Part shown: positions 11,491-47,200 of the stretch, in pieces
Position numbering within the stretch: the first letter of the stretch is position 1
Layout of the letters: each line of letters begins with the position of its first letter
From: Bispira polyomma
Taxonomy: Eukaryota
DNA: 64,000 nt
Direction of reading: 5' to 3'
Assembly: GCA_965649765.1 (NCBI GenBank)
Contig: OZ287751.1
Coordinates: 79,236,001 to 79,300,000, forward strand
Position numbers and translations under genes: made by a program
The notes under the pieces: generated by a model
What the model was told of the DNA's origin: nothing
Database searches by the model: none
Seen by the model: the letters and a program-made list of their open reading frames with translations, nothing else

Positions 11491-11798
11491 GAACAACACA
11501 GTCTGCCCCTACCAGTCAGACTCAGGACACAACCTCTTCATGGGGTTTTTACCCTGCCACCCCTCATGAACGTGGTAACCCCAGCAATATTGTCCTTACA
11601 AAAGTGTATCCAAGCCTTAGCAGAGAAAATAACACTTTATTTCACAGGGGTCTTTCTGGTGCCTGTTTTGTAGACAATTTACAGGCTTTGAACTATGTAA
11701 ATATAGTAGAAAAGAAACTGTGTAAATACTGTGAAATATGTTTCCAATGTTTGCCGGCTTGTACAAAAACCAAATGTATACTCAAGTATTGTTGTTCA

Positions 11799-14068
11799 TC
11801 TAATCTAGTCGTACTTTTATAGCGCTTAATCTTTGTACAACAAATTCTAAGGCGCAACAAACCCAAAACGTTAATCGAAAATCAAAAATAGTGGGCGGAT
11901 GGAAGTCGTAACCAGAGAGACTACCGTAAATGGTTGCGACGGCTAAGGTGGAAAAGCCTGTTCAAAAAGATAGGCCTTCAGCTTACTCCTGAAAGAGGAG
12001 AAAGTTTGAGCCAGGCGAACATGATCAGGTAGGCTGTTCCAAATGAGGGGGCCATCATGAGCTAGGCAGTGATTGAACTGAACTTTGGATTTGTGGATGC
12101 GAGGGTCGAAAGTGGGAATGTTAAGGTATAATTTATCAGGGTTACTGCGCCTTGTCCTGACTGAGCATGTATATTTGGATAGATGGGGGCTAAAATAAGT
12201 GGGTAATCCAGAATTTAGAAATTTAAATATTATTGTTGCTGTTTTGAAAGCAACACAATATTTTATTGGGAGCCAGTGCAGTGACTTGAGTACAGGAGTA
12301 ATGTGGGAAAATTTAGAAGTTTTGGTCACAATACGTGCCAACGAGTGTTTGATATTCTGAAGGCGTCTGAGATCACTACGAGATAAGGAACAGAACAAAG
12401 AGTTGCAGTAATCAAGCCTGCTGTTGACCAAAGCATTGGCAACAGTGATTGCAGTGGATTTGGAAAGATAGCGTCGAATCCACCTGAAATCACGGAGGCC
12501 AACAAAACATGATCTACACACCGCTGCGACATGGTTAGAGAAGGAGAATTCAGAGTCGAACACCACACCCAGGTTTCGTACTTTGTCAGCTGGAGAAAAC
12601 CTGCTGCCAAGAATGTTAAGTGGAAAACAACAGGACAATTTTTCCCGTTGCGACTTGGAGCCAAACAAAATAAACTCAGTCTTCTCAGGGTTCAGCTTGA
12701 GATATAGCAAAGGCCTGAGACAGGACGGTAATTTTTCAAGTCAGCCTTTGGTAGAGAAGGTTTTTTTATTAAAGGAGTGACAATGGCCTTTTTAAAATCA
12801 TCTGGAAAGACACCATTTACCAACGAGAGGTTGATAAGTTTTGTGATTGAGGGCAATAAAATGTCAATACATTCCTTAACAAGGAATGTGGGCCACGGAT
12901 CTAGCAAGCAAGATTTTACGGGTGATGCCAGTATAATTTTCCTGACTTCATCAACAGTTACTGTGGAGAAACAGTTGAAGACGGTTGGTGGAGCTGTTGG
13001 TAAAGGGGCATTTGGGGCGGCTAATGTAAAACCGTCACGGATTCTGGTAATTTTATCAGTGAAAAAAGTACTAAAAATGTTTGCCAGTGATTTGCTATTG
13101 CAACTTTCGGGTAGTATAGTCTGTTTTTTACAGTGCAGGGTGCTATTTAGCTTTTGCCAAAGTTTCTTCGGGTCACCCTCGCTTTGTGAGATGATGTTGG
13201 CATAGTAGGCACGTTTTGAGTCATTTATAGTGTTGTTGCACCGGGTGATCCATTGGCGTAGTCTTGATCTATTTGTAGTAGTTTTGTTTCGGCGCCACGT
13301 TCGTTCGGCTTGTCTGCGCAGCATCTTCATTTCACGATAATTACTGGTGATCCACTCAGGTGCCGGCTTCTTCAATGTCTTTGATTTACATGGCGCATGG
13401 CGTTCTATAAGAGACTGCAGGTCAGCGCAGTACTGTGTGTATAGGTCAGTGGCATTATCAGCAGGAGACTTGACGAAGGCCGTATCTGCCAGCTCTCGTC
13501 TAAGGTCAGACATATTGATTTTTTGAAATTGCCGAAAAGTGATTTGTGTGACATCAAAAGATGGTGGGGAGGGAGCATCAATTTCACAGGATATTGAAAA
13601 ATGATCACTGATGCAACCAATGTTTTTTATGTTTCTGATACTATTGAAATCAGTCGGAGTTAGCAAGCAGTCTAGTGTATGCCCATGAATATGGGTAGGG
13701 AAGTTTATGTGTTGGATGAGATTGCAAGATTTCAGAACTGTGGAAAACCGATAACTAATTCCAGATGCGGTGTCTATGTGAATATTAAAATCCCCACAGA
13801 ATACAGTAGGAGAGGGTAACGAGCAAGTAAACCCAACAAAAGACATGAATTTTTCGAAAAATGTAGTGAGATTTGAGCCAGGAGGCCGATAAACTGTTGC
13901 AAAATTTAAACAGTGGTTTTTCCAGTGACCAGAGACAAGGATGAGTTCGAAAGATGTAAAACTTGGTGTAGCAACTAATTGACATTCATAGTTTTTCTTA
14001 ATAAAAAATCCTACCCCCCCACCCTGTTTACCTACACGAGGGTTATGGAATAGCTGAAAGTTCATCAT
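11799..14068 (-). mobile_element. L2/Crack-like LINE with partial APE endonuclease and internal deletion of the RT core
   Basis: ORF 12692-14068 (GGGVGFFI, VYRPP, CGDFNIH, THIHGHTLD, SDH..NYRPVSG) abuts ORF 11943-12710 (LKLNPEKTEF..KAYLFEQAFPP); no QGSVLGP/YADD in between; conserved 3' tail TTAAGCGCTATAAAAGT. Confidence 0.92.
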
Positions 14069-16925
14069 GTACCTTCTCTTAAAGAAGCCAGATTAAAAGT
14101 TGTGAAGCATGTTTTTTTTGTTCCTTACTCAAGCCTTGCTCCAATTGTCTCAAATGTCACAAATTTTGTCCCCCACCCCCCTGCAGGGGTCTCCTCCAGT
14201 TCTTTTTGGAACAATGGAGGTTACTGTAAGCCAGTCCTTGCACAGTTTTTTTTATACAAGCTGAATACTTACTTCCTTTTCAAAGGAAGCCCCCTCTTAC
14301 AAGTTCTCCTTAATTGAAACCCTTCAAGAAATACAGCCTTAAAGGACAGCATACAAACTTGATAGACAAACAAACAGTGGAGAAAGTCTCTACTCTAAGC
14401 TCCCTTGGTTTTTACAACCGCCTCTTCCTGGTCCCTAAACCAAATGGAAAGTAGCAGCCTCTTTTGGATCTCAGTTCATTAAACCTCTATCTCAAGGTCA
14501 AAAAGTTTAAAATGAAAACACTAGAATAAATCAGACTGTCCCTGCAAAAAAAATGAATGGGTAACCTCAATCGACTTTAGAATAGCATATTTTTACATCC
14601 CCATAAACAAAAGGAAAAAAATACATGAGATTCTATTTGAATGGGACACCATTCCAATTCAAGGCCCTACTGTTCGGCCTATCAACACCACCTCTGGAAT
14701 TTACCTTCCTGGTCAAGAAGGTAAAACTCATGGCACAACGATCAGGCATCCGGTTACACCAGTATAATAAGATGACTGGTTAATCAGAGCCCCATCCAAA
14801 AAAATCTGCTACCAACAGACTCAGAAACAAGTCTTATTAGTACAGAAACTAGGTTGGAGAGTGAACATGGATAAGTCGGAAATAATACCTAAACAAATCT
14901 TCGACTTTGTGGGTTATCATACGTCATCATACGACCTCCAATCTGGGCCGTGTTCACCCAACTCAAGAAAGAGGAAATTAGTAACTGACAAGATCAGGAT
15001 TCTGATTGCCAAAAGCCATTGCTCAGTTCGACGATTCATGTCACAGATAGGCCTACTCACGTCAACAGAGAAATTAATACCATCGTGCAGGCTTCACATG
15101 AGACCTCCCCAGTGGCACCTCAAGAACAATTGGCGTGTGCCAGAGTTCTTAGAAAAGAGAATCCCTCTTCCCTGAATACTCCACACCCACCTAAAATGGT
15201 GGTTAGACCCCATAAACTTTTTTCTCAGTCAACCTCTCCACCCTCTTTGATGTGCTCTGCAGATTTTTACATACGCCTCAAACGAATGTTTGGGGGCACC
15301 CATAGATGGGCACACAGTAAAAGGCAGATGGTCCGTACCAGAGAGGAAACTGAACATAAAGGTCCTACAACTAAAAGCGGTTCTTCTAGCCCTCAAAAAG
15401 TTCGAAAAAAAGGTGTCAAAACGAGACAGTGCTCATAGCCACAGACAACACCACAGTGGTGTCTTACATAAACAAAGAGGGGCATGAAATCAGCCTCCCT
15501 CTGTGCTTTCATGTGAAGACTCCTATCATGGTATAACCAGAGACAGATCACTCTCCAGGCAAGACACATCCCAGGTCACTTGAATGTGATAGCGAACAAA
15601 TTGTCCCGGTGCAACCAGATAATCCAGTTGGAATGGGCTCTATCCCCAGGGGTTTTCCGGAGGATAACCCTCAGGTGGCACTGCCCCAGTCTGTACATAT
15701 TTGCCACCAGGTTCAACAACAAACTTCCCCTGTTTGTCTCTCCGGTACCAGACTCGGCAGCCTGGGGAATAGATGCCCTAAGCCTTTCATGGGAGGATCT
15801 AGATTTCTAAGCCCATCCCTCCACAGCGTTGCTAGGAAAAGTGGTAGACAAAATTCTAAGCCACCGGTGCAGAGTCATTCTCATAGCACTGGGTTGGCCA
15901 GGGATGGTTTTGGGACCTGGTCTCCCTATCAACACAAATCCCCTTAAAGCTCCCCCTGTCACCGTCCCTCCTGAAACAACCATTAAACGGGACCCACCAC
16001 CGGGATCTCCCGGTTCTGAACCTACACACTTTCTTCCTAGAACATCTAGGATCAGGAAGCAGGGATTCTGTAAGAGAGTGGCAGGCAGCATTAAGGCTGC
16101 TGAAAGAGACTCAACTAGAGTCGTCTATGGAGCAAAGTGGTCCATTTTTGTTCGTTGGTGTGACCTACACAATGAGAACTTCTAGACTCCTATAAAACAA
16201 ATTGCTGATTTCCTAATGCACCTCTTTGAGGACCAGAAATTATAGCCTTTAACCATAGATGGTTAAGCCATTGCCGACAAAATAGGCAACTCGGTTGTCA
16301 ATATCTCCAACTCCTGGTGTAGGACTTTATATTGACATTTAAGCAAGAATTTAAGGTAAATTGTTCAATATATAATAATTGAATTCTCAAAAGTATTAAA
16401 AAATCATATACACTTACAACATACGATATTTCTGAAAGTAAATGTCCAGTAGTGGATCTATGGTCAAAGAAAAAGGCTTAATGTATGTATATTCCATTAT
16501 GAAAATCATATGTTAAATTTTGCCCTATAGTAATTGTAATCTAATTTATACTCAGCGCATATATCTACCTTCATCTAGTATTCATAGCACTGATTAACCT
16601 TTTCCTGACTGTGCCAGTTAACTGCCTTAGTTACAGTCATTCTTCTACCCAAAGAGAGAGGCTTGAGGACGACCATTTATCAATGTTCCCAAAGAACTTT
16701 AGTCTGTCACTTTATAATTGGTCAAAACTCTAATTTATAACAACTAGAATATTTAATTATGGGACAAACTAATTTTCGATTAAGTCTTTTAATTTTAAGG
16801 AAGGATAACTCTCATTTCAATGCAAAAATAATTATGAAGGTCAACAGTTTTTGGGGTTAGTTTTGTATCAGAAATGCACGTTATATCAAAGTTTGTTGAA
16901 AATCTTTTGTACGAAAAACAAAATA

Positions 16926-23200: not shown

Positions 23201-26200
23201 TATGCTTGTTCTTTGATTTAATATTAGAGTAATAATTATTGTGTACTTCATGGTTTTGAATGAATCTATTAATACTAGAAGGCTGCACATTATCCATTTG
23301 AGTAAAGTGATGTAAAGCATGTAATATGTATGTGAAAAATATTTAACTGAAAGATGTTTAACAATGGACTGTAATTTATATAAGGTATATATTGTCAAAT
23401 TCTCCCAAAAGTATATGGTGTACAGTATAACTATAGTGTATTCCTTTGTAAAGACAAACATTAAATAGTTATTGAATGAATTGCATTTCAGAGAGAAAGA
23501 ATAGGGGTTTTAGAAGATGAACTAGTTGCAATAACCAATGAAAACACATTCCTGACGACACAGATCAAACAGTATGAAAGGTACTGAGAATTAAGATTGT
23601 TAGAGCTTTGTAATGGTACAAAAGATGTGTTCCTGTATAATAGTATTTTATAAAAGGCATGATTCCATAAGTGCAGCGATAAATGTAGTGTAATGATAGC
23701 AAGTATTCAAATAGTATGGGTTCATAAAATTGAATATTTGGATAATGGAAGTTTGGATAATAGAGGTTTTACTGTATTTTCTGACCCATCCAGGGTGACA
23801 GCCAAGTCCAATGCTGAGTGGTCCTCCACTCCTATTGTGAGCCCAATTACAACTCCATCACAAACACCAGTTAAACCTGATAAACCAACCACAAAGTCAT
23901 CTACAGTTGTTATGTCAACACCTTCAAGACAATCAGAAGATGCTGCAGGTGACCAACTAGATGGCGTGAAACCACTGGAACAGGATTTAGGGGAACTGGA
24001 CTTGACAGCAGAGGAGATACAGGAAGTTCTAGATAAGAGGGACACAGCAAGTGGGGTTGTGATAAGGGATAGTACTACTACAAAGAGTAGTGAGGTCACA
24101 GGAAACCCTGAGGTAGGGACTGCTGCTGCATGTACGACAGGGGATTCCCTACAGGTGGAAATCGGAAGTGATGTCATAGATCAGAATGTGACTCTGGGGA
24201 TGTCCACTAGGGAGGATCCTATTGGTGGAGAAGTCTCTTCTTCAGGGATGCATGAATCATGGAGTCCAAGCACCAGGTGAGTGTAAAAAAATTGAAGACT
24301 AATGTGTCGGGTGTATCTGTGATCCTCGGTGGTCTAGTGGTTAGGGAGTGGGTCAGAAGGTCTTGGGTTTGACTCCCGGTACTGGCTGCTAGTTTTAGTT
24401 GGTGGGATAACATCCTTGGGCAAGACGCGTTTGCCTAGTGGCTTGGATGAACACCTAAAATGTTTAGTCCTCTTTCACTGAGTTCTATCTGCAGTGGCAG
24501 ATTAATGATCCTTAGGGACATTGATAAATTGTCATACTAAAGCCTAGGCGCCAGTAGTGGCTGTCCATGAGGAAGCGCATTTGATATGACCCTATGTTGT
24601 ATAAGTGCGCTATAACAAATATCATATGTTATGTTAAAGTCGAAGCACTAGGTGAGTGAAAAGACTGAACACTAATTGGTTGTATCTGTTCTGCAATCTG
24701 AAGTAAATCCAGATTAAGTAGAATGTTTTTACAGTAGAAAGCTAAAAGCTTTATGCTCTAAACTCTATGGGAAGGGCTTTGGTGATCTAGTTGCAATACA
24801 TTCGCCTCCCACCTCTGCCATTGTGGATTGGAATCTTGACCTTGGCGTCTATGTGGGAAAATTGGCAATATATTTGTTCGAAAGCAGGTGGTTTGCTTAA
24901 CAGATTGTCATGATTTCCTTTGGCTATTGATTAGGTTATTATTACTATTCCTGTCCACTATTACTTTAAATATAATAATATTCCATTGTAGGAACATGCC
25001 GGAATCTTTCCAGAAGGCATTACTGGATTTAACATTCCACACCGCAACCAGCAACCGGATTGTGTCAGAAGTGAGTCAGATCAACCAGCTCAGCAACCAC
25101 AACTATGTGATACTGATGTTAGGCAGGTGCTTGCCGCATATAGTACCCAATGTGATCTTAGCCAAGAGAGAGGTCAGTATAATACTGCTATAAGTTATAC
25201 AGTGTGCTAGTTCTGGGTCAGTATTCACAAAGATTCTTATATGCTTGAACTTTTTCGTTATTTATTATTTTATGTCCTAAGTTAAATTTGTTTTACCTAA
25301 TGCATTGCAATAACATATATGAATGTACCTTCAAAAGATTATGTGAATGTAGTGTCACCAGTTACAAGTTTAAACAAGTAATAAGATATGTTGACTTTTT
25401 AAAAAAGGCATATAGAATACATTAGATACATATATTAGAAACTGATGAAAGTAGCATATTTATAGAATGATAGTCAATATTCAACTTTAATTTATTTTGT
25501 CTGTTTTATGTATAGTCAATTTTCATTATTGATGTCTTTATTTTGTTCTAATTGATCATTCCCTCAAGTTTGATATTTGATAAATAACTTATATTATGTC
25601 TGTGGTGTAAACATAGGAATTGATTCCATTGATCGTCATAGCAGCCACATTACATCCAGATTCCAAACAGAGAGACCAGCTTCTGAACATACTGTTTAAC
25701 TTAATCAAGAGACCAGATGTGGACCAAAGGTACTGTCCACTAGTTAATTAATACACCTCAATAAATACTACAGAGATAGTCTCCACTGGGGCCACGGTGG
25801 CCTAGTGGTTAGCAAGCACTGCGCTTCACAATCACTGGTCTCTCACCTCTGGGCGGCCTGAGTTCGAATCCCGTCGATGCCTATGTGGGAAAGGTGATAG
25901 TTCCTTACTTGTGGACCGCTGGTTTCTCTGCAGAACCTTGACCGACTGTATGCAGTGTTTCCTTCAGCGTTTCCAAACTACCCGTCCCAATATAACCTAC
26001 TAAAAGGTACTAGAGTGGACGTTAAATATCCAAATTCAAATTCAAGTCTCCACTAGTCAATTAATACACCTAAATAAATACTACAGAGGTAGTGTCCACT
26101 AGTCAATTAATACACCTAAATAAGTACTACAGAGGTAGTCTCCACTAGTCAATTAATACACCTAAGTAAATACTACAGAGGTAGTCTCTACTAGTCAATT

Positions 26201-29200
26201 AATACACCTAAATAAGTACTACAGAGGTAGTGTGCAATAGTCAATTAATACACCTAAATAAGTACTACAGAGGTAGTCTCCACTAGTCAATTAATACACC
26301 TAAATAAGTACTACAGAGGTAGTCTCCACTAGTCAATTAATACACCTAAATAAATACTACAGAGGTAGTGTCCACTAGTCAATTAATACACCTAAATAAG
26401 TACTACAGAGGTAGTCTCCACTAGTCAATTAATACACCTAAGTAAATACTACAGAGGTAGTCTCCACTAGTCAATTAATACACCTAAATATATACTACAG
26501 AGGTTGTATCACTGCATAGTCAATAAATATTTATCTGTGGTGTGTCGTCCATGTTAAAACAAGCTATAATGTAAGTATAAAAATGTAAATGAATGCAGTC
26601 TTCCCCTTCTTCATTTGAATTATTCATCCAGTTTATTTATGCGCTGTGTTCATTAACCATTTTAGCAACTAATGTTTCAGACTTGGTCAGCCTTAAATTT
26701 TTATTTTCTCTAAATTAAAAAATTGTAGAATAATTCAAATGTTACTGCACTTCTAATTTATTGTGTCAGTGAAATATGGAAAGTAATTTCTAAGATTAGT
26801 TGAAGTTGATAATTTAAATGCACTATTATACATCAATCTTACATGTGGTTTTAGTCACCTGAAATAACTAAATAAGATGTAGTACACATGCTAGATAGAA
26901 ACACTATTGAAAAGAAATGTGTTTTTAGTAATGTAAACACACAGATGCATGGCCAATTAATCAAGCTGTATTTATGTAATTTAATTTTACCACATGAACC
27001 CACAATTGCAGCCTTGAAATGGTTCTTTAGTAAAGTTTTAACCATTTTTAAATGCACAAAAATTAAAAACTTCAATATTTAGTTGCAAAATGATTAAAAC
27101 AGCCATATAACGATTTTTTTATTGTGACATCACAGCTTAAGGTTCAACTTAAAGGTGTTCAACTTTATAGGACTTATTGTATATCTGCTTATCCACCTTG
27201 AACTATAGGAATAACCAATGACAAAGCTCGGTATACGGTAATTTTTACCATGATTAGTAACACGAAGGCGAAGCCAAAGTGTTTCTATGCTTAAAGAGTG
27301 GTAAAAAATTACCATATACCGAGCTTTGGAATTGGTTATTCCTATTCTAACGTGACAAATTAAATTATTAATCTGATTCAAGCTGCTTTTACTGCAAAAT
27401 TATGTTATTGAAGAAACTATAACTACTGGGGATCCAGTACACTTCAGGCGAACTTTGTCAATTTCCGTCTATGGGTATACGGTTATTTTCACCGAGGCTG
27501 TCGGCCAATCAGAATTGCCGACACTGCTGTGTCATGTTAGAATAGAGGTTATAATAAGCATCTGCTTTAATATTGCTAGCCTCTAACCTCCCAGGGACAG
27601 TGGGTTTGACTCCCACAGCTTCTTTCAAGTAGGAAAGTTTGCCAGGTACTTTGTATAGGTCATTGATATTCTAGTAAAAATCGTACTTGTTTCCTCCACA
27701 AATATATCTGGCCATCACTGTATGACCCAACTTATTGAAATTGATGTAACACCCCAAAAAAATAAATAAATACACATCCTTGCAAAAGAGTATTACAGAT
27801 ATTGTTACCAAATCTAATACATAGGATATAATGGATATAGCTTGCTTAGGGAATGATTTAGGCCTGCTTACACATCGTCTGAACGGATGGGGATGGGGTT
27901 TCATTCACACTTTACACATGATATTGTAGACATGTTTTACCATGGAACATGTCCTGTTTCTGATATCCTGTGTAGAAACATGTCCCGCTTTGGATGACTT
28001 ATGCCAAACTGCCACAATCTGTAGTCTTTTAAAATTGAGACTGATAATTAGAAATACTGTTTGAGCTTTTTCCCTGGTCATTGCAGTTTTAACTTAAATG
28101 GGATTTAGCTCTATATATATATAAGATCTTGGAAATTATACTCGTAAAAAATGTTTAAATTAAAAATTGGTAAAATTTTTACTTCCGCATTAACGTTGTG
28201 CATTTCTGTATATCTTTTTAGACACATGATTCTGACTGGCTGTGTGTCATTTGCCAGACACGTTGGCCCTCAGAGAGTCGAGAGTGACTTGTTACCCCAG
28301 TGTTGGGAACAAATCACCCACAAGTACGCTGAGCGTCGCCTATTAGTGGCTGAGGCATGCGGAGCCCTTGCCCCCTACCTCCCCTCAGAAATCAGGAGTT
28401 CACTGGTTTTGTCCATGTTACAACAGATGTTAGAGGAGGATAAAGTGGAGGAAGTGAGAGAAGCTGTAGTGAGGAGTCTGGGACTGGTGTATGGATTTAT
28501 AGACACAGTGGACAAGTATATACAGGTAAGTGGATAGGTATGTACAGGTGTGTACAGGTGTATACAGGTTTGGACAGGGGTGTATAGGTGTACACAGGTA
28601 TATACAGGTATGTACAGGTGTATACAGGTATGTACAGGTGCGTACAGGTGTATAGAGGTATATACAGGTATGTACGAGTATGTACAGGTGTACAGGTGTT
28701 TACATGTATGAACAGATGTGTACAGGTGTGTACAGGTATATACAGGTATATACAGGTACGTATAGGTGTGTACAGGTGTATACAGGTATATACAGGTATG
28801 TACAGGTATGGACAGATGTATACAGGTGTGGAGGAAGTCAGAGAGGCAGTAGTGGGGAGTCTGGGACTCGAGTATGGGTTTATAGACACTGTGGACAAGT
28901 ATATACAGGTGTGTACAGGTGTGTACAGGTATGTACAGGTATGTACAGGTGTGTACAGGTGTGGATGAAGTCAAACAGGCTGTAGTGAGGAGTCTGGGAC
29001 TCGAGTATGGGTTTGTAGACACTTGTGTGCTGTATTTCAGGGTGGTCAGCTGTTGATGAAGACTCTGATTGATTCCTCAGAGAAAGTGTCCACTGTAGCT
29101 TTAAATGTCTTCCTGCCGACCTTTGGGATGTGGACCATGGAGCTGGAGAAGTTAGAGAAAGATCTTATACCTTCCTTATTGGGAAAACTGAGAAATCTAG

Positions 29201-32200
29201 TCAATGTAAGTTAGATAAAGATCTTATACCTTCCTTATTGGGTAAACTGAGAAATCTAGTCAATGTAACTTACAGAAAGATCTTATACCTTCCATAATGG
29301 GAAAACGGAGAAATCTAGTCAATGTAAGTCACAGAAAGATCTTATACCTTCCTTACTGGGAAAACTGAGAAATCTAGTCAGTGTAAGTTAGAGAAAGATC
29401 TTATACCATCCTTTCTGGGACAACTGAAAAATCTAGTTAATATAAGTCACAGAAAGATCTTATACCCTACTTATTGGGAAAATTGAGAAATCTAGTCAAT
29501 GTAAGCTAGAGAAAGATCTTGTACCTTCCTTACTGGGAAAACTGAGAAATCTAGTCAATGTAAGTTACAGAAAGATATTTGCACCTTTTTTACTGGGAAA
29601 ACTGAGAAATCCAGTAAATGTAAATTACAGAAATATATTTGTACCTTCCTTACTGTGAAAACTGAGAAATCAAAGTCAATGTAAGTTACAGAAAGATCTT
29701 GCACCCTCCCTACTAGGAAAACTGAGAAATCTGGTCAATGTAAGTTAGAAAAAGATCTTATACCCTACTTGTTAGGAAAACTGAGAAATCTAGTCAATGC
29801 AAGTTAGAAAAAGATCTTATACCCTACTTGTTAGGAAAACTGAAAAATCTAGTCAATGTAAGTTAGAAAAAGATCTTATACCCTACTTGTTAGGAAATCT
29901 AGTCAATGCAAGTTAGAAAAAGATCTTATACCCTACTTGTTAGGAAAACTGAAAAATCTAGTCAATGTAAGTTAGAAAAAGATCTTATACCCTACTTGTT
30001 AGGAAAACTGAGAAATCTAGTCAATGTAAGTTAGAAAAAGATCTTGCACCTTCCTTATGGGGAAAACTGACAAATCTAGTAAATGTAAGTTACAGAAACA
30101 TATTTGTACCTTTCTTACTGGGAAACTGAGATATCTAATCAATGTAAGTCGGAGAAAGATTTTGTACCTTTCTTAGTAGGAAACTGAAAACTCTAGTCAA
30201 TGTAAGTTACAGAAAAATCTTATACCTTCCTTACTGTGAAAACTGAGAAATCTAGTACTTGCGTTAGATGTCTACAATACGACTTATTTTCCCTGTATTT
30301 CTGGTCAGCCAGTCAGCTTGACGAGTCACATTTGTGTATCTATGTGAGATGTCTACAATATCACTTATTTCCCTGTATTTCTGGTCATCCCGTCACAATT
30401 CAGCCAGTCAGCTGTTTAACGAGTCACGTTTGTGCATCTATGTGAGATGTTTACAATATGATTTATTTTACCTGTATTTCTAGTCATCCCCCCACAGTTC
30501 AGCCAGTCAGCTGTTTAACGAGTCACGTATCTATAGTTACGTAGAATGTCTACAGTATCACTAATTCACATGTCTTATTGTCCCTGTATTTCTAGTCCTC
30601 CCCTCACAGTTCAGCCAGTCAGCTGTTTGACGAGTCACGTTTCTGTACTTATGTGAGATGTCTACAGGAGCTGACTGCTGTGTTGTTTGCTATGGTTGTC
30701 AAAACTGGACCTTTTACAAAGAAACTGGATTTGACTACCAAAAATGTCTCGCATGTTCTAGGTATGTATCAAAAACTAGCGATTCTGGGTCTCAAAAGAG
30801 TGTATGTTTCATAGTTAATATGTATTATATTATCCTAATTTACATTGTCAAACCAATAATTTGGGTCTAATTCTTGAACCTAAAATACGTCGATTCCCCA
30901 CCTCCTTCTCCAACTTGCTGATCTCTCTCTGAGACTCGGTAGTGTATGTTTGTGTATATTGTCTCTGTATTTTCAGTCTCCAGTCGATTTCCCACCTTCT
31001 TCTTCAACTCACTGATCTCTCTCTGATACTGGGTAGTGGGGCTGCTATGGTCTAGTGGTTAGCAAACATTACGCTTCACAATCACTGGTCTCTCACCTCT
31101 GGGCGGCGTGAGTTCGAATCCTGTCGATGCCTATATGGGAAAGGTGGTAGTTCCTTACTGTGGGCCGCTGGTTTTTCAGTGCAGAAATTTGATTAACTGT
31201 ATGCAGTGTTTCCTCCAGCGTTTCCAACTACCCGTCCCAATATAACCTAAACAGATACTAGAGTGGACGTTAAATATCCCAATTCAACTGATACTCGGAA
31301 GTGTATGTTTCTATACATTTTCTCTCTATTTTCAGTCTCCAGTCGATTTCCCACCTCCTCGTCCCCACTTACTGATCTCTCTGTGATACTGGACAGTGGT
31401 CATCAGCTGGCCACTCTCACACAACTCTATGAAGACTACATTAGTGAAGAGTGGTACGAACCCTGGGAAGAGTACGCCTGGATAGCAGGGGAATTGTACG
31501 TAGTCACGGTTATTACTGTAATACAGTAGAACCTCTATTATCTGAATATTCTTTTTTTTTATGAACTGAATAGCAGGGGAATGGTACGTAGTCACAGTTA
31601 TTAGTGTAAATACAATAGAACCTCTATTATACCAACTTCTATTATGTGAATATTCGATTTAATGACCTTAATTTTGCTATTTATAATTTATAATCACCTT
31701 TTGTTTACACTAAAATACAGTTTTTTAACTTCCAGTTATCCCAATATGTTTGGATAATAAAGGTTCTACTGAACCTGTGTTGTAGAAATTTTACTTTACT
31801 CCTACACTTGTCTAAGTATGATCTGATCACATGTCACTGTTTACTTCAAGTGGTATAGTTTGCCAGGTACCTGCCGTAGGGCTGTGTTTTCCAATACAAA
31901 TAGTACTTGTATACTACACCAATAAATCTGGCCATCATAAATATGATGAAAGATGGTGAAAGTTATGTATAATAAATTTTCTGCCATATTGAGAAAACTA
32001 GTTTAAAATTTGAGGTAAGAATCATGACACCCTCCTGGTACCGGTAAATTAAAAACTATTCTGTGTCCAGATATAGTTACAGATATAGAATTTCACATCA
32101 TATAGATTTGAATTAGCTTTGTCATTAAAGTCCCTTACTGTTGGAACTATGATTGGATTTATGAATAACAGTAGGTATTGAATTGCAGTTTTAGTTGGGA

Positions 32201-35200: not shown

Positions 35201-38200
35201 TAACTCGTACAATGAGCCTCGACTACTCAACGACCTTTTACAACAATATCATTGTCATTGTATGATTGTAGGAAGAAGATCACAAAGCTCTGAGCTGCTT
35301 CCTACAAGATCTGATGCACACCTTAGCTCTGAGTCAGGCCTCTCTCAATAGTATCAATGCTGCATTTGTACAGTTATGGTAAATACAGACTTGGTATTCT
35401 GGTTTATATTGGACAAAACTAAATTAGAATGTGATTGTTGCACCTAAGAAAATCTGGTGGTAAAAAGTTTACACACCTGATAGTCTGATTAGATCAGGTT
35501 ACAGTGGCGGAAAATTTGTTAAAAAATTTGTTGAAATCATATTTTTTTGAAGTATTAGTTGAATACAACAGGTATGTATTTTACAAAAAATGTTAAATTA
35601 TATGTGTATTTTACATAATAAGTGTTAGTTACATAAATTATGTGTGTAATTTCCAGAAATGATACTGACATACAGTGTATATTTGACATATGTGTACATT
35701 TTAGTCAGTCCAGTGACTACTATGAATTACTACTGTCCGTGTTGTGGGATGGAGTCGTCCACACTTCAGCATTAGTCAGAAAAACATCAGCTCTCGTGTT
35801 TGAAGTGAGTAGGTTACAGTTTTACCAGGGTCAGAATAAAACAAAAATTCTTAAAAAAAACCTGTGTGCTGCTTAAATTCAACTAATACAATTATATTTG
35901 TGTCAATCAGGAATATATCCCAGATATGCCATAAGGTACTCAAACATGCAGTAATTATCAGTCAGATTGGAAGACATTGCATATGTTTCTAGTACAGAAA
36001 GGGAAATGATGACGTATCAAGAGATTATAGTGAATTCAACATTTAACCATTTATTTCTTTAAAAGTTGAATCCTGTAAATTGAAAATCTCAGACAAACAG
36101 TAGAAATACTTCTTACAGATTCTCAGAGTACCAGTGGAAATACCTCTTGCAGATTTCAAGTTTTTCTAGTCATAACCCATAATGTCTGCAATGTTGGTGA
36201 CCTGTTCTCCCTTGAATAGACCAATCTTTTTTTATGAGCTCATTTTCCAGATGATTGGCATCAGAATTCACAAGTGTACAAAGGTTAACTGCCACCATGG
36301 TAAATTGCGTAGTAAAGCTTAATACAAGCATTGTCCTTTTTGACCTCTGCTAAAAAAGCAGCCTGTAAGTTGTAACTGTTTATTCCTATAATGTCTTCTA
36401 GTATATGGAATGTGTTGAGAGAGAGGATATAATTTGTCCTATTGTTATATATGTTACACCCAATCCATGAAATTCTCTGCTCATTTCACAAAATAGGCAA
36501 GTAAATGTACAAAATTTTAATACAAGAGAGTATTGTTATGTAAGAGTGCATTATGATTGTTCCAATTTAGTGATTACAGTCAAACCCTTTTTAGTACAAC
36601 TCTGATATGTGGAATTACCTGTTAAGTTAAACTTATTTTAAGGTCCCATTACTAAATTTCTAATTAAAGTCAACCCTGTTAAGTAGAATTCCTGTTAAGT
36701 AGAACCAATTTTATGGTGCTTTTAGATTCTACTTAACAGGGTTATACTGTATATCAAATAACTTGTTTCAGGGATGGCAATTCAATAATAGTTAGTAATG
36801 TTCATTATAGAGAAGGGTGCACTATTCAGAGGTGTTCAGTGTTTGAGGTTTAACTGTATGTGGAATGTTGCTTGATATCAAGTGAATGAGTTAGTACATG
36901 TACTACTAGTAGTACTAGTGACTTACTAGTCCCTGTAAATCTAAGTTACGTGATGTCACCCCTTCTGTGTTCTATACTACTATACAGCTGGTAGTGAGAG
37001 GCACCAGTGAGTTTGTATCTAGTCCCTATAAATCTAAGTTACATGATGTCACCCTTTCTGTCTTTGTTCTATACTACTATAGAGTGAGAGGCACCAATGA
37101 ATGACTAGTACCTGTAAATCCCTGTCCCTGTAAGTGTCACCCTCTCCCTGTAAATCTAAGTGTCATCCTCTCTGTGTAAATCTAAGTGTCATCCTCTCTG
37201 TGTTCTTTACTACTATACAGCTGGTAGTGAGAGGCACCAATGAGCACTTGGTGTCTAACCGAGTAATACCTGCCCTAGTGACACTTGCCAGCGATCCAGA
37301 AATCTCAGTGAGGACATCCACAATCCCCGCCCTGGGGACGATTATAGAGACGGTCACCGACAGAGTAGTAAGTAAAGTACAACCTCTTATCCAAACATAG
37401 TGGGAGACAGATTTTGTGTGGATAATAGAAGAGTCATAAAATAGAAAAAATCCTTCGTGTATAACACAGTAGGAAAATATAAATTTGGCAGAGTAAAAGA
37501 CTGTGCATTAAGTTGAAAAATATAATAGAGCACTGTAGAGGTTCTGTATAGTTTGGAGTATAACATCAATTTCAACACATTTTATGTCATATCACGACCG
37601 GCAGTTCACTGGTGGAGGAAATCAGAGCAGGGTAGTTGCTCAAGTATTCCGCCCTGTAAACTGCTGGGCTTCAGCAAATCTACTGCTAACTTCCCTAGAT
37701 CCATGCCAGGACCAAGTGGTAAGGATAAAACATCTGTGGCTGTGTTTTCCAGTAATCTCAGACTCAAGCTCTGCTCTAATAGGAGGGAGGACACGTAGAG
37801 TTTGACTGTATATTTAAATTCAGCATTGAAAGCTCTATTAAAATGAATTGTGACATGTATAGGTTATTTCCATATACAGGAGTTGTACCTAGCCTTTACG
37901 TGAAAGTTCAGTTTGAGGTTTTGTTGGGCAGTCTGTGGTTGTATGCTCAAAATTAATCCCGAACTCATACCTACTAGGCTGGGGGCGGGTTGATAAATCA
38001 GGTTGCAATTCGATATTAATTAGCCCAAGTCTCTTTCAATTTTACACCTTAAAAGCAGGGTTCATGTTTTATTTTGTACTTTGTATTAATGTGTTAAAAT
38101 GTATGTCGAAATACCAGATATTATATCTGGTATAATGTTGTGTGTAAAATGGCGTCAACTATCTTAGTTTATCTTAAGACAGATTAAAACATTGTTAACT

Positions 38201-41200
38201 TTGTTGTCAGTGTCAGTTCAAACAATGTTATTCCGAAGCTCAGACAGGATAAAACCTTTGCCCTTTTTACACCTACTGTATAAAGTAGATGATCATGTCT
38301 AGTGGTTGATTTATCATTATTTGAAGTAAATAAATGGAACAGTGTAGTGGCGTTTTGTTATGGTTTTTTATGTGTTCTATTAATAACACTGAGCTGATGG
38401 GGCTTTGTCTGGGTATCAGATTATTGGTGTCCAAATATTAGCATATGTAAGGCTGAAAGTAGGATTTAGTTATGCCGTACAAAAAGATATCCTCAAATTC
38501 AAACATTTTTTATATACAGAAGAAGAAGATTTTTGACATTCATTTATTCGTGAGATATCGCAAACAAGATACATAAAGTAAAAGTGAACTATTAAAGCGC
38601 AAATCAAAAGTTACAACGTTGGTGTCTATTCTTAATTTTGCAACATATGCAAAGAGGGGCGACATATGGAAAACAACAAACCCAATATTCCAACATTGAT
38701 CTATTTGGCCAAGTAAAAATTGGTTTAATATGAGGACATTTGTTGTATTTCCATCCTAATACTGTTAATATCAGACTACTGCCAGCAGTGCCAGGGTTGG
38801 GGTCAATGTAGTAGAAGTATTAGAAATGTAATAGATTCCTCAAAATTTAGTCTACTGCAACCAAGATGTTGAATTAATAAGGTTTATTACATTGTGTATA
38901 CCATAGATATTTGTAGTCACCACATATCTCCCTCTGTATGAAGTTCAGTCTTATGGTGGGAGTTTCTTGAGTCAGACGTTGTATATTAGAACATGGTTAC
39001 ATATTGCATGTCTTGTCATGGTTTGGTCACTTCTTATTATACAAAGCCATTGGATCTCATTAGAGAAGAACTGAAGAACCCCAGTCATTTTAGCTCTTGT
39101 CTTGTTGCTATATTTACCCCTACATCCAATCATGGCTATGGGGTTATTGTCACCCACTATTAGCCTATTACCTTTACCTAAATTACCCAAACAGGCAGGC
39201 AAGGCATTTTGTATAGTAGAGAACAGTACAACCTTTATTATCCAAGCTTCTGCTATCTGAATATTCAATTTTATGAAAATACTTTTGGGGCCTTGGTGGC
39301 CTAGTGGTTAGCAAGCATTGCGCTACACAATCACTGGTCTCTCACCTCTGGGATCTGCTGGCGTGGGTTTGAATCCTGTCGATGCCTATGTGAGAAAGGT
39401 GTTTGCCAACAAGCTTAAATTAAACCCAGATAAGACTGAGTTTATACTATTCGGATCAAGAGCACAGACTGATAGATTGAAGGATTTTTTCCCAGTCAAT
39501 ATTTTAGGAAACATGGTGTACCCTGCAAGTGCTGTCAAGAACTTGGGGGTGTGGTTTGATTCTACGTTTTCCTTCTCCAAACAAGTTCATGAAGTTTGCA
39601 AAATCTTGCTTCATCCAAATGAGGGATCTAAGAAGGGTTAGGCACTATTTGTTAGCCAGTACTGCTACTATAGTTGCAAATGCTCTGGTGTAAAGTCGTC
39701 TTGACTACTGTAATTCTCTTTATAGAAGTTTATCCAAGGCTGACATCTATAAGTTGCAATGCATCCAAAACTCGTTAGCCAGACTGGTGGCCAACCATTC
39801 TAAGTACTCCCGTGTTACTCCTGTTTTAAGAAATCTCCATTGGTTACCCATTCAGTTTAGATGTATGTTTAAAACAGCTACCTTAGTCTACAAATTCTTA
39901 AATTATGGCCTTCCAGCATACTGGTATCCATACCTCACACTTTCCACATGCAGTCATAATACCAGAAGGAGCAGACCGGAAAAAATTTATCTGACCGTTC
40001 CAACCTTTATCTCAGCAGTACACAAATCTAAACGTCAGTTTAACAATAGCTTTTCCCATGATGCCCCAACACTTTGGAATGAATTACCCACTGAAATTCG
40101 TTGTGCAACCTCACTCACATCCTTTAGAAAAAAACTTAAAACCTACCTATTGGACAAGGCTTTTCCACCATAGCCCTAAATTCACCCGGCGTCTCCATGG
40201 TGCTGACCCATGCTTGTCTAACGGAAATGCAATTTGAATAAGGATACTGTCCTGTGCCTTAGAATCCCCTAAGTAGGAGAGATTAAGCACTATAAAAGTT
40301 AGATTAGATTAGATTAGAAAGGTGGTAGATATTCTTATTAGTGGGTGGGTGGTTGTGTAATATCATGCCTTGACATTAGGTTAGCATTTAACCTTGTAGG
40401 TATGACCTTGACCTTATATAGTGATTTGAACTAGAACTCAGGAACCCTAGACTATCTGAGTAAATTTATCTTTGGTCCACATATTCTTAGTATTCTAAAA
40501 ATGTGATAATGTCAGGTCATTTTGACCTTGGACTTGTCGGCTCTGGCCTTTCATATGACCTTAAAATTATGTTCTAGACTTTGTCTCAAGAACATGTTGC
40601 GAGATGAGCCAAATACATTTAGAATAAGAAAGTTAACAAACTTTGTCATAGAAAAAACGTTTGTCATACAAAAACCTTTCATTATTGAATTGCTCTAACA
40701 GGACATGTCTACACACAAAGTGGGCCAGGTATATTTAGTAGACGCCAAAACATCTTTCATTCAATACTTCCATCAGTGTACTTGTCTAGTTCTGTAATAA
40801 AAAACAAAAACTGTTTTTTCTCTCATAACATTCCAGAAAGATCAAATTGTACATGTATGTCTTTTTCTGTTTGTTTGAAGGGAATTTGACAGATTTTCAT
40901 CTAAAAGCTAATAACTGGGACAACATCAGTCAAATCTGGTTTTCATTAGTTTTAGTTTTGTCATTTATGGTTGAGTAAGTTGTAAGTCAGCAAGTTAAGA
41001 TGATAAAGTAACATATAAGATTGATGTTTTGTGTTAGGGTGCCAATATAAACACTCGGGGGAAAGATTATTGAGATGGAAGATCCAATATTATCAATACT
41101 ATAAAAAAATATTTGAAGGACTTTGAGTAGACAGTTTACCCATACAGTTTCGACTTTTTTTCTGTATGTTCAAATATCGAAAGCATTGAAGAGGGTTCAA

Positions 41201-44200
41201 TTTTCTCAATTACTGGTACAACAGTACAGATAAATGTCTTAATAATTATTTTGTTTACATCCAGATAAACTGTGTTTCCGTATTATTTTTGAAGAAGAAG
41301 AACTTAAAAGTAAAATATAAATAAAAACTTCCCTGATTGGGACAGAATATATATATATATTCTAAAAATGACCAACTTATGGCCCCAACACACGATTACA
41401 GTGTTTTAAGATTTAGAATATCTATAAACTTTGATTTACTACAGACTTGATCAAGAATTTGAACTGAAGGCCCTTCCCAAAGTGATTACAAATTAGATGA
41501 ATTTATGGGGGTTGGATTATTGGTTTCCAGAAAAATGTGACGGTTGGTTATTGAACGAGTTCTTTGGGGACAAATTCACTTCCCCAATTAATTCTGTAGC
41601 AGGCAAAAAAGTTCCTTTGTATGTGAAAAATATGAAAAAGTAAATTTCACTGAGTGATTGACTTGATGTAAGAAACTCATACGAAAGATAAACGTTCCTT
41701 TGATATTAAGCATTAATAGAAACCCATTAAAAAGGATATGAATTATCAATAATGATTATTAATTGCATAAAAATCCTTTTTTGTTATTTTTAGTGAAGAT
41801 ATATCATTTAAAATTGCACATGTAAAAACCCTCCTCAGTAAATATCCTAAAGTTAGGCATATAAAATGGTAGTAAGATTCATTTCACTTTGGACATAAGT
41901 GCAGTAGTACCTCATATTATCTGGACTCCTTGGGAGAATGTTAATCTGTATGGATAACAGAATGTTCATATAAAAGAAGAGATATTTCGGTGTAAAACTT
42001 TATGAAAATTTAAACTTGCCGGTAATACTATGATGTTGAGTTTATATAAGATCAAATATTTGGATAGAAAAAGGTTGGACAATAGAGGTTCTACTGTAAG
42101 TCCTCTGCTAGTCATGGCAGTAGCATTGTCAATTAGTAGAGTCTGTTACAGCAAGAAATAAAAACAAATCCAACAATGTTGATATAATTTTGTATATAAT
42201 CATTGTATAAATGGTAAAGTTTTTCTGACTGTGCTTTCTGTTTCTACCATCTTCACACCAATGCTATAACAAATATGAAAGGCAAAGCCATCAGTTGAGT
42301 AAACACTACTACACAGACAGTCATTCTGCAAGCATTACTCCTCTTGAAGTCCCTTTTAAAAATGTGTGTTATCTCCCAGCAATCAGGCTTCCCATAGGAT
42401 TGTATGTGCCACCACAGCCTGTCTTTAGGGATGTGCCCACAAAATAGGTCGGGCCAGGCAGGCTGGCTTTATATAAAGCCTTAAGATAATATACAAATAT
42501 TAAGGTGTGCTTAAGTTCTGTTATTCTGAGAATAATAAAAAATAATTGATTTCTAAATTACTTAAAATACACATGTAAATATATCTTTTAAGTTTTCTTT
42601 GTTCCAGTGTTTGAAATTTTTTTTTTAAACAATTACATCCAAGGAAGTAGAGTTCATTATGAAATGAGTGCATGGCAAAAGTCATCTTGTTGGGTGTGAC
42701 TTGATGTGATATTGGATTTGTCTCATTCCCAGCTGTTGGCATCATCTATTAATAGACTGAGGGGAGCTGTATCAGATAGCAGGGAAACTAATTGGCAGAT
42801 ACAACTATTGGTCCGTTTCTTATTTACAGATACTTGAGACCTAATTATTTTAAGAATGCTGAGTAATGGTTTCCATATGCTGCATACTAACCTAATACAT
42901 TGTGTTATTTTGCGAATCTTAAAAACTGTCATATTTACAGTGCAACTTATTAAGTCAAACCTCACTAAAGCATTTTATTCAGCAGGATTTTCACTTACCT
43001 GGGGATATTTTAAAGGGAAAGGCCTTTTGTTGGACAAAACTTTGACAACATAAAGGGAAATTCACTTGACAAAGTTCTACTTAAAGAGGCTTCATAAAAA
43101 TATGAAGAGACAATGTGAGACTGTCATATAAATGTATGTTTATGTATTAGGAATTTAAGATAAACAAAAGCAGGAATCTCCAAGTAAAGAGAGATCATTT
43201 TAACCTGGACTTACTAGGTTATCATGTCCTATAAATAATGAAAATGGTAATGTTTAAACCCCTGTAGTGCCAAAAGTCCAGGCATTCTCTGTGGCACACC
43301 CCAATCATGATCCTAAAGAATAATCCTGTAGAAGGAATAGGTCTGCAATCAGATTCCTGAAGTAACCAGCAGGTGTATGTTTAGGCGGGAAAGCGAGTTG
43401 AATCAGTTGATACAGATAGGTTTTGAGTTTTGTTTGAGCCTGTAATCTTTGTTTTGATATGGATACTGACAGGCAGAATAAACATTCTATTCAGAAAGTA
43501 CTGCACTTTAAATGATCTTGAACCTGTAAAGGTATTGTAATTGTAATTAGACTTTTATTGCGCTTAATCTCCCCTTAATAAAGGGGACTCAAAGGCGCAC
43601 CAGCACAAAAGACAGTTATCCAATTTCCAAAATCAAGGGACAGAAAAAGGGTCAGCAACATAGAGCGTGCCGGGGGATGATTGAGACTATGGTGGATATG
43701 CTTTAGTGTACAAGTGGGCTTTAAGCTTCTTTCTAAAACAGGCTAGTGAGGGGGAAGCACGAATCACATCAGGAAGACCATTCCAAACAATGGGAGCATC
43801 AAAAGCAAAGCTGTGACCAAACTGTTTTACCGACCTTTGAGTAGATGGGTGGAACTTCGGAACAACAAGGAAATTACTACCACTCTGACTATGTCTGGTA
43901 TTGTAGGAACTACTGTAAGTGGAAAGATATGGAGCAAAGTACTTTGGAAACCCAGTGTGGAGAAATTTATAAACAAGTGTAGCTGTCTTAAACACTGAAC
44001 GCTGTCCAACAGGGAGCCAATGCAATTTCTTAAGAACAGGAGTTATACTAGTGTATCGACTGGTGTTTGACACAATTCTAGCTGCACTATTTTGAATGCA
44101 TTGTAATTTGCGTAAATTAAACTTTGAGAGACTCCTGAAAAGTGAATTGCAGTAATCCAGTCTACTACTGACAAAAGCATTGGCCACAAGTATAGAAGCA

Positions 44201-47200
44201 TCATAAGTGAGAAACCGTCTGACACGTCTAAAGTCACGGAGTTGCATAAAACAGCTTTTGCAGACACTCTGAATGTGTTTAGAGAAAGAAAAGTCAGAGT
44301 CAAATCATACACCCAGGTTCTTGACAGAATCAGCTGGACTGAAGGGGCTACCCAGGATGTCAACTGGAAACAATGCTTTCAACTTATCCCTCTGTTGTTT
44401 TGAGCCAAAGATTATGAACTCAGTCTTGTCGGGATTAAGTTTGAGTTTACCAGTTGACATCCACTCTTTCACATCATCAAGACACCTGTTCAACTGTTCA
44501 AAGGCAGTAGATGTGTTTTTATGGGATAGGTGCACATAAATTTGGGTATCATCTGCATAAAAATGAAACTTTATTCCTGTGTATTTGCCAATAACCAATC
44601 TGAGAGGAGCAGTGTATAATGAGAACAACAGAGGGCCCAAAACAGAACCTTGAGGGACACCAAACAAGAGTTTACAAAGATCGGACAGAGTAGAGCCAAT
44701 TTTTATCGACTGATAACGATCAGTTAAGTAGGAAGTGAACCATTTAAGAACAGAGCCCGTAACTCCAAACCAAGTCTGAAGACAACTGAGAAGCGTGGAA
44801 TGATCAATGGTGTCAAAGGCAGCAGAGAGGTCGAGCAATACCAGGGCAGTAGGTTCCCCTCTTGACAAAGATAAGTGAACTTCATTTTTTATAGACAGAA
44901 GAGCTGTCTCAGTCGAATGACCAGTTTTATATGCAGACTGGTATGGGTTGTCTAAGTCGTGGACAAAGATGTGATCTAACAGTTGCCTAGCAACCACGCA
45001 TTCAACCAGTTTTGATATGAAACTAAGACCAGATACAGGGCGATAATTTTTCAGGTTATCAACTGGAAGAGAAGCCTTCTTAATAAGAGGAGTAACCACA
45101 GCTGTTTTAAAACCATCAGGTACATGTCCCTCTGTAAGTGAGCAGTTTACAAATTTTGTAATGGATGGTAGTAATATATCACTACATTCTTTAATAAGAG
45201 ATGTTGGCCATGGATCCAACATGCAGGATTTAGTAGGCGAGTTACTTATTATTTTACTAACATCATCTTCAGAGACTCTGGCAAAGGCAGTAATTTCTGG
45301 GGGATCAGAAAGAGGATGAACATCAATTTTAGTTCCAGAGACAATAAAAGTATCCCTAATTCTCTTAATTTTGTCCGAAAAAAAGGAAGCAAACTTATCA
45401 GCTAGTGATTTATCAGAATCATGGGACGGGAGTGCCACATTGGTATCCATATTAAGGGTCTTGCGCAGTTCGTGCCACAGCTTCCTGGAGTTGTGACTGT
45501 TGTCAGAGATAAGTTTACTGTAATACACCGACTTATCCTCGTTAACAAGTACATTGCACTGAGCAATCTGGCGACGTAGTCGACTTCTATTTTAAGGGAT
45601 TCTTGGCCCTTCGCCAAGTTCTTTCATATTGCCGCCTGAGAGATTTAGCCCGTCGGTAAGAATCAGAGAGCCAATGCACAGATTCTTTCTTTGACATTCT
45701 GGATACAAGTGGTGCATGCTTATCTAGTACATCACCCAAATCATGTATGTATTGTTCATAAAGTTTGGCTACAGAATTGGCAGGTGACTTAATAAAGGAA
45801 GTACTCTCAAGATCAGTACGGAGGTCAGACATGTTAATACAGTGGTACCTCCTATAATGCACTGTATTAGGAATATGAGCCACCTGAGGGGGAGAGGCAA
45901 TTGAACATTTGACTAATGCATGATCCGATATGAAATCACAGACTTTGACATCCACAATAGTATCCTGATCACAAGGCGATAAAATAAGGTCCAGAATGTG
46001 ACCATGCAGATGGGTAGGTTGTCTAACTAACTGTTTTAAATCGCATGAATCAAGAAAGGTCATAAATTTATGACCGTCACCAACTGGTGCATCAACATGG
46101 ATGTTAAAGTCACCACAGATATGATATGAACTGTTAATGGAAGACAAGAAACCAACAAAAGACATAAATTCTTCTAAAAAATGACAGGAACATGATCCTG
46201 GGGGGCGATAGACGCAGGCAAGCAACAGTGAGCGGCCATGAAGCCCAATTGACACCACCATATTTTCAAAGGACTGATAGACAGGAGAATCTATTTTATG
46301 TGGTTTGTAGGAGGATCTAATGAAGAAACCAACACCACCACCAATCCGTGAGGGACGAGGCGTTTGAGGAAACACAAAATCTGGAGGAGTAACAGACCGT
46401 AGGAAGCTATCCGTATCAGATAGACGGACATGGGTCTCAGTAACACAAAGGAAGTCGAGGTCATGCGATGTCACAATATCTGCAAGGAGTGGACCCTTGT
46501 TCCTCACGGATCTAGCATTTAACACCCCGAGCATGACAGGACCAGGGTTAAGGGACACATCGCCGGCGAGTAAAAGTAACAAGACAAGACCTCTTCCATT
46601 AATGGTGGTAGGAAATTTATGACAAGAACATGTGTATGAAAATTTTTTGGCCACTTTAGCTAATGAGGTTGCTGATGTATGAGCAACACTCTGATGCAAC
46701 AACTCATACCTATGAGCCATAGCCACAGCAAACAGTGCTGAAAATAGGACAACCCGAAGCAAAAACATGCCTAGTGAGGTTGTAGAAAAAAAAAGAAGCC
46801 CTTAACCTGAACTCAACAGTGGGGAGCCTCAGAAAGCTTGTCCCTACAACTCACCGCACAATTCTTCGTCCCGTGGGCGACTCACGGGCACCCTAGCACC
46901 CCACACTATAGCCTGACCTTAAGCTAAGTACAACCACACCAACATGTAAATTACAATATAGAACAGCAAAATGAGATAAAAAGTAAATGTAAAGGGGGTA
47001 GAAAAATCATAAATTGTAATAAATAAATGTACAGAATTTGGAAAAAATTTTACAATATAGAACAGCAAAACGAGACTAAATTAACAACATAAAACAGCAA
47101 AATGAGACAAAATCAATGTAAAAGGGTAGAAATATCAAAAATAGTAATAAATAAATGTACCGATATCGGCAAAAACGACGACCTTATTACAAAATATTAT

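Follow-up and report, generated by a model that had tools for sequence, protein, structure and literature searches.

Donor and acceptor mirage repeats fill an intron of RELCH in a genome where junction-spanning copies are frequent in sampled genes

Introduction

Tandem repeats that reiterate an exon-intron border have been described in amphioxus and in humans. In amphioxus, where they are called 'mirage' minisatellites, they occur in the globin genes BflGb6 and BflGb9, in Adh3, in troponin C and in PGBD5, and the available portions of the reports indicate that they leave splicing normal (PMC3087553, PMC3902484). The human examples are VNTRs that reiterate a donor. According to the accessible part of PMC1557585, only the most upstream donor of the 37 bp VNTR in F7 IVS7 is used, and VNTRs of this kind are also present in CBS (31 bp), 6-16, LMNB2 (100 bp) and PDGF (81 bp). 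By the same account, CBS and 6-16 use two further sites, and LMNB2 and PDGF use the first donor only.

Repeats at human exon borders within segmental duplications have been counted, and the part of that report available does not treat enrichment (PMC2812944). In the literature searched, from which subscription journals were largely missing and which held no supplements, we found no genome-wide count of junction-spanning repeats in any invertebrate, no intron with fused donor and acceptor arrays, and no precedent for the excess of repeats at junctions that is described below.

Here we analyze a stretch of 64,000 nucleotides of genomic DNA (C4:79236001-79300000), hereafter the window, which carries a RELCH gene. 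Intron 12 of this gene is a new and extreme example of the mirage class, as judged from every structural test that we ran.

Results and Discussion

Two arrays make up RELCH intron 12

Exon 11 matches RELCH/KIAA1468 homologues, the best being from a bivalve and an annelid at 81-82% identity, from which we infer a lophotrochozoan host. By combining tblastn matches with GT/AG positions, 21 exons (16943-51723) could be joined into a stop-free RELCH frame of 1085 aa, the last exons of the gene lying beyond the traced part. Exon 8 (23794-24276, 483 nt) is a low-complexity Ser/Thr-rich linker without a tblastn match to the two homologues displayed. The features in and around intron 12 are as follows.

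28222..28525, plus strand: RELCH exon 11, 304 nt, open frame, tblastn identity of 81% to a bivalve homologue
29041..29205, plus strand: RELCH exon 12 (165 nt, 55 aa, phase 0/0), whose final ~50-58 nt form the template for the donor array
29147..30256, plus strand: donor mirage, 59-nt unit, 17 decoy donors and a last partial unit without a donor
29206-30595, plus strand: RELCH intron 12, 1390 nt, phase 0, with bounds set by the 21-exon frame
29206..29211, plus strand: authentic intron 12 donor GTAAGT, 8.0 bits by a matrix from 245 introns of the same genome (median 9.2)
29212..29214, plus strand: in-frame TAG, read upon use of any downstream donor
30248..30277, plus strand: join of the arrays, passing from exon-12-derived sequence through a short shared motif to a 22-nt match to exon 13 nucleotides 50-71
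30255..30667, plus strand: acceptor mirage, unit of ~40 nt of intron end and 72 nt of exon 13 start
30561..30565, plus strand: CTAAT, which we take to be branch-point-like, 35 nt 5' of the real acceptor and absent from all three decoy units
30596-30761, plus strand: RELCH exon 13, 166 nt, authentic acceptor AG at 30594-30595

The structure of intron 12 is real and was correctly counted. The sequence-only reading had stated that the intron holds no unique sequence. Indeed, self-alignment leaves none of its 1390 bases outside the junction-linked repeats, although native intron persists inside the units (~6-9 nt in donor units, ~40 nt in acceptor units). Each array matches only its own locus in the genome, the search counts being lower bounds.

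TRF assigns the donor array a period of 59 and 18.9 copies (29149-30256, score 1361). Each unit consists of ~50 nt of exon 12 followed by ~9 nt of intron. The 17 decoy donors span 29265 to 30202 and are spaced by 59 nt in 13 of 17 cases, with the remaining spacings being 60, 61, 50 and 58 nt. Their hexamers are GTAAGT (11), GCAAGT (2), and one each of ATAAGT, GTAACT, GTAAGC and GTAAAT, so that our recount is identical to the earlier one (11 GTAAGT, 2 GC, 1 AT and 3 other variants among 17). GT is kept in 14 decoys, and the full 9-mer of the real donor in 10. Identity of the copies to the real unit is 75-97%, with unit-specific changes that include a 9-nt deletion in one of them. Units 10, 11, 13 and 14 are 96-100% identical to one another, and other units mostly 73-94%. 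About 8 nt at the ends of the donor unit are common to the exon and the intron start, plausibly as microhomology.

The acceptor array has a period of 112 and 3.6 copies by TRF (30305-30666, score 395). Its three decoy exon starts, at 30305, 30385 and 30484, are spaced by 80 and 99 nt, and a further 112 nt leads to the real start at 30596. The AG has become GG at 30305 and 30385 and is intact only at 30484, where the decoy acceptor scores 7.3 bits against 7.2 for the real one; its use would reach a stop.

At the join, the last donor unit ends 4-5 nt short of its donor and is followed by a 19/22 match to exon 13 nucleotides 50-71, a score that was reached by none of 2000 random windows (draws inside 28500-31400 were set to zero). 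The sequence-only reading had likewise placed the end of the donor copies at ~30256, where they meet acceptor copies directly. The join is best explained as the scar of a deletion that ran from one of the inner donor copies to one of the inner acceptor copies.

Comparison with described repeats

Several features place intron 12 among the mirages. The tandem units span an exon-intron boundary and the terminal unit is the predicted working junction, many but not all splice dinucleotides are kept (GT in 14/17 decoys, AG in 1/3), the unit is locus-specific rather than a dispersed element, and inner units (10, 11, 13 and 14) show concerted evolution. Amphioxus mirages, as far as the available portions of the reports describe them, likewise have border-spanning units at donors or acceptors, many intact GT/AG and homogenised inner units, and their range of unit sizes (10-160 bp) includes those of RELCH. 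However, RELCH has donor and acceptor arrays fused in one intron with no interior left. Length polymorphism and normal splicing have been demonstrated in amphioxus; in RELCH, normal splicing is a prediction.

In the human VNTRs, too, the first unit spans the exon end and 5-25 pseudo-donors follow, and the LMNB2 repeat covers most of its intron. Unlike RELCH, no acceptor array is reported for them in the accessible part of PMC1557585, and their splicing has been measured while that of RELCH is predicted. The VNTR in ABCA7 intron 18 resembles the RELCH array in its donor-containing units and in that retention of one unit yields a stop and an NMD target, as given in the available part of PMC5954066. 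Its unit differs in starting at GT, without exon sequence, and its length affects skipping of the exon that follows rather than the use of decoys.

Age and origin of the intron

The sequence-only reading had asked whether the position of intron 12 is conserved in other animals. A metagenome scan yielded 70 loci, mostly intron-less matches or matches ending short, and only L135, L136 and L119 were informative. L135 and L136, near-identical contigs from a distant animal, carry a 55-codon exon that aligns to exon 12 and is followed by a phase-0 GT donor at the same codon; by eye, no copy of the exon end is present in the first ~120 nt of that intron, where the contigs end. The likely donor of L119 is two codons further on. 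That a distant animal shares the codon and phase of this donor argues that intron 12 was not gained by duplication, and on this alignment the intron predates its arrays.

The sequence on both sides of the meeting point is exon-derived, so the interior of the old intron was probably lost by deletion. Two other double-mirage introns that we viewed retain 100-120 nt of native interior, which is the pattern that would be expected before such a deletion. We consider it likely, at a probability of about 0.72, that two separate border duplications have filled an old intron here, its middle likely lost, the sites nearest the exons likely used and the array probably near-neutral.

The sequence-only reading had allowed that the ancestral intron was either tiny or replaced. 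Replacement agrees with the exon-to-exon join and the ancient position. A tiny intron of ~50-60 nt whose arrays grew outward with no deletion could have held a donor, a branch point and an acceptor, since the native remnants total ~50 nt. However, plain duplication leaves native sequence at the outer array ends, as in the two other double arrays, while the join here is exon-derived on both sides. The shortest of the 245 sampled introns measures 128 nt (medians 566 and 978), although the caller could miss very short in-frame introns, and we judge a tiny ancestor improbable. That intron 12 is all repeat might also recall a Rogers-type gain, in which tandem duplication of exon sequence creates the intron itself, a mechanism proposed for mirages in the available part of PMC3087553. 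Such an origin is very unlikely here: the intron does not start with a copy of the exon 13 start or end with a copy of the exon 12 end, and a position common to a distant animal would call for parallel gain. An assembly artefact is hardly credible. Units differ from their template by 3-25% with unit-specific changes, and Logan contigs of three runs agree with the assembly at every base over most of the region, 30016-30428 with the join among the parts so matched, although these runs come from one study with at most two samples and may be the assembly's own source. Only the homogenised block at 29764-30015 is unbridged among the Logan contigs listed, and the exact copy number rests on the assembly there.

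Another proposal of the sequence-only reading concerns function, namely that decoy donors take a copy-number-dependent share of splicing and send RELCH transcripts to NMD through the TAG at 29212, thereby tuning RELCH level. In a variant of this idea, following the example of ABCA7, array length would govern the skipping of exon 12 (55 aa, in frame) or of exon 13 (which would shift the frame). The predicted coding outcome stands, as the decoys at 29265 and 29324 on translation reach a stop at codon 58, the TAG at 29212-29214, and all others share this stop by position. The product would carry a premature stop upstream of later junctions, which by sequence makes it an AS-NMD candidate, and 10 of the 17 decoys behind this in-frame stop have the real 9-mer. 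Human precedents include the use of up to two proximal pseudo-donors in CBS and 6-16, as described in the accessible part of PMC1557585, and ~2% one-unit retention in ABCA7 with exon 19 skipping that depends on VNTR length. However, the same source reports that ABCA7 retention is unchanged with VNTR size (PMC5954066). Scanning data indicate no competition from distal copies, in which case copies past the second or third should have no effect. In addition, such arrays are common among the myosin and dynein genes of this genome, and Logan contigs from at most two samples of one study, which drop variants, show no length polymorphism or other array-length allele. Tuning by copy number also fares poorly against the presence of the structure at 16% of sampled junctions, where decoys are neither purged nor graded (see below), and against amphioxus and F7, which use the authentic site only. 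We therefore regard a regulatory role, by either route, as unlikely.

Filling of an old intron from both borders could have proceeded in a few steps. The two arrays have different units, each templated on its own junction. Each array may have been started by slippage or microhomology-led repair, as the ~8 nt shared at the donor-unit ends would allow, and may have grown by unequal exchange, which the homogenised block and the 9-nt deletion in one unit suggest. A deletion between inner copies of the two arrays would then have removed the ancestral interior, leaving the join. By analogy with homologous systems, exon definition or 5'-to-3' scanning would pick the first donor and the last acceptor, the 3' choice perhaps being helped by AG loss in two decoys and loss of the branch-point-like motif in all three, and rare splicing slips would give stop-carrying RNA that NMD clears as noise. 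The RELCH locus stands at the extreme of a tendency that recurs among the genes sampled.

Decoy strength across sampled arrays

RELCH intron 12, in which ten decoys set at 59-nt steps are identical with the real donor, is a natural minigene for testing positional 5' splice-site choice in an invertebrate. Its first decoy is weak (4.0 bits), and weakened decoys make up 4 of the first 5 vs 3 of the last 12. This distribution could mean selection against proximal leakage, but the wider sample does not repeat it: no weakening of the nearest decoy is apparent across 22 donor and 11 acceptor arrays with at least three copies. The nearest decoy donor is at most 1 bit weaker than the real donor, or stronger, in 16 of the 22 arrays, and nearest decoys are no weaker than farther copies (p = 0.22). 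Many conserved genes tolerate identical donors 40-60 nt downstream, which is consistent with the first donor being chosen by position.

Purging of decoy splice dinucleotides can likewise be rejected. They are kept in 269/291 donor copies and 137/158 acceptor copies, and identity at these positions exceeds that of the flanks (0.945 v 0.896; 0.929 v 0.882). We read the difference as a neutral two-fold effect, in which only the copy changes at constrained positions, rather than as selection for decoys.

Weak splice sites do not appear to be targets, as scores are similar with and without arrays. The breakpoints that hug the donor in RELCH are not general, the median exon/intron parts of the unit being 25/24 nt at donors and 27.5/56.5 at acceptors, and unit length in the sampled arrays is not tied to the reading frame. 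A 1160-nt dynein intron (L170-L171; C10:17491001-17511000, minus strand) is a double mirage in which most decoy donors score ~5 bits above the predicted real donor, and offers a sharper test of positional choice than RELCH.

Junction copies are frequent in sampled genes of the same genome

RELCH was chosen for its arrays, with spanning copies at 7 of its 40 junctions, one of them weak. An unselected sample was drawn from 13 myosin and 18 dynein gene segments, leaving out two near-identical paralogues of one myosin. Introns were called by homology, using profiles from homologues together with splice matrices, and 93/101 myosin and 152/159 dynein calls were kept, or 245 in all, with one dynein segment giving none; the junctions are thus predicted ones from two gene families.

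Spanning copies are found at 78 of 490 sampled junctions (16%), comprising 30/186 in myosin genes (17 donors, 13 acceptors) and 48/304 in dynein genes (18 donors, 30 acceptors). At least one is present in 25 of 30 gene segments, and copies occur at both ends of 5/245 introns vs ~6 expected by independence. Junction-linked repeats account for 12% of sampled intron bases. Repeats cover at least 90% of six of the 245 introns, one of the six probably having a wrong donor call; a single intron is covered fully, by a donor array with only ~3 nt of exon.

The rate may vary by region or expression. Two dynein segments among L144-L185 (C6:20528001-20548000 and C5:30293001-30313000) have 0/32 and 0/18 junction copies, and others have up to 7/20. 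Three near-identical myosin genes (L010, L011 and L012, on C11, C8 and C13) carry one 53-nt donor array at differing lengths, which indicates that copy number changed after gene duplication.

This wider count matters more than the RELCH locus, in itself a clear-cut and extreme instance of a repeat type already known. If about one in six junctions carries decoys and duplications prefer exon ends, mirages would be a major way in which introns turn over in this lineage, and a general rate of this order would be a hazard for gene annotation.

Repeats are enriched at junctions

Enrichment was assessed in the 152 of 245 introns that are at least 550 nt long. A first repeat unit covers the junction in 58/304 cases vs 41/1176 random interior positions, an excess of ~5x, where 324 of 1500 interior draws had been dropped for facing the far edge of a junction array. 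At 90-250 nt into the intron, coverage by the first unit has dropped to 2-8/152 on each side. Most outer edges fall within the exon, 10-60 nt from its border, at ~5 per 10 nt vs 0.5-1 in the intron. Copies that are at least 93% identical show a larger contrast (26/304 at junctions vs 7/1176 in the interior), which is inflated because edge units of free arrays decay faster. The draws are non-independent, and Fisher p-values consequently overstate the case.

GC content was rejected as the cause. A second interior control (85/2723) is flat across GC, at 2.7-4.3% over five bins, yet junctions below 34% GC have copies in only 1/29 cases.

Exon ends look like duplication hot spots, or like places where copies survive longer. 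Where the template is preserved, decay runs at half the rate and the flank is protected from deletion; this could perhaps give a two- to three-fold excess. That the excess is larger among young copies would point to biased origin or to re-seeding by the working unit, subject to the inflation noted above. The strong enrichment is unexplained by a uniform, neutral duplication process and counts against a near-neutral account. As a tentative reading, possible rather than probable, exon ends in this animal could be hot spots of tandem duplication, by way of a process linked to splicing, to transcription or to the chromatin of exons. Successive duplications and deletions would then replace whole introns by sequence derived from exons, with RELCH introns 11 and 12 as the end state. 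An exon-end preference, if true, would provide a handle on whether splicing or exon chromatin shapes where DNA mutates.

Other repeats in the window

Further junction-derived repeats lie next to intron 12.

28526..29040, plus strand: intron 11, almost all donor-derived (97%), made of 10-nt units and longer copies of the exon 11 end
30932..31040, plus strand: copy of the exon 14 acceptor, in a region (30932-31395) where a high-copy SINE-like repeat separates the copy from the real site
31566..31600, plus strand: one copy of the exon 14 donor, lying 88 nt 3' of the authentic donor

In intron 11, an exon-11-derived copy runs into a 17-18 nt non-repeat acceptor remnant with no obvious branch-point motif. 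Introns 11 and 12 both lack an interior, so two neighbouring introns appear to have lost theirs.

Elsewhere in the gene, a 46-nt array of 10 copies (25730-26504) has its source in the opening ~50 nt of intron 10, counted from the donor; a SINE-like insertion (~25790-26044) lies between the array and its template. Single copies of the exon 8 donor (24262-24690, a weak match, also parted from its template by a SINE-like element) and of the exon 20 acceptor (36960-37245) are present as well. The short element at 31040-31290 is of very high copy number, with a contig depth >10^5 times that of unique flanks and similar copies near ~25790 and ~39290; by eye it looks like a tRNA-type SINE. Decayed retroelement-like stretches were seen by eye at 9100-14000, 14400-16200, 39400-40300, 43560-46900 and 59800-64000. 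They include LINE-like pieces, one of which is inside the 14-kb intron 20, and an LTR-type pol on the minus strand at the end of the window.
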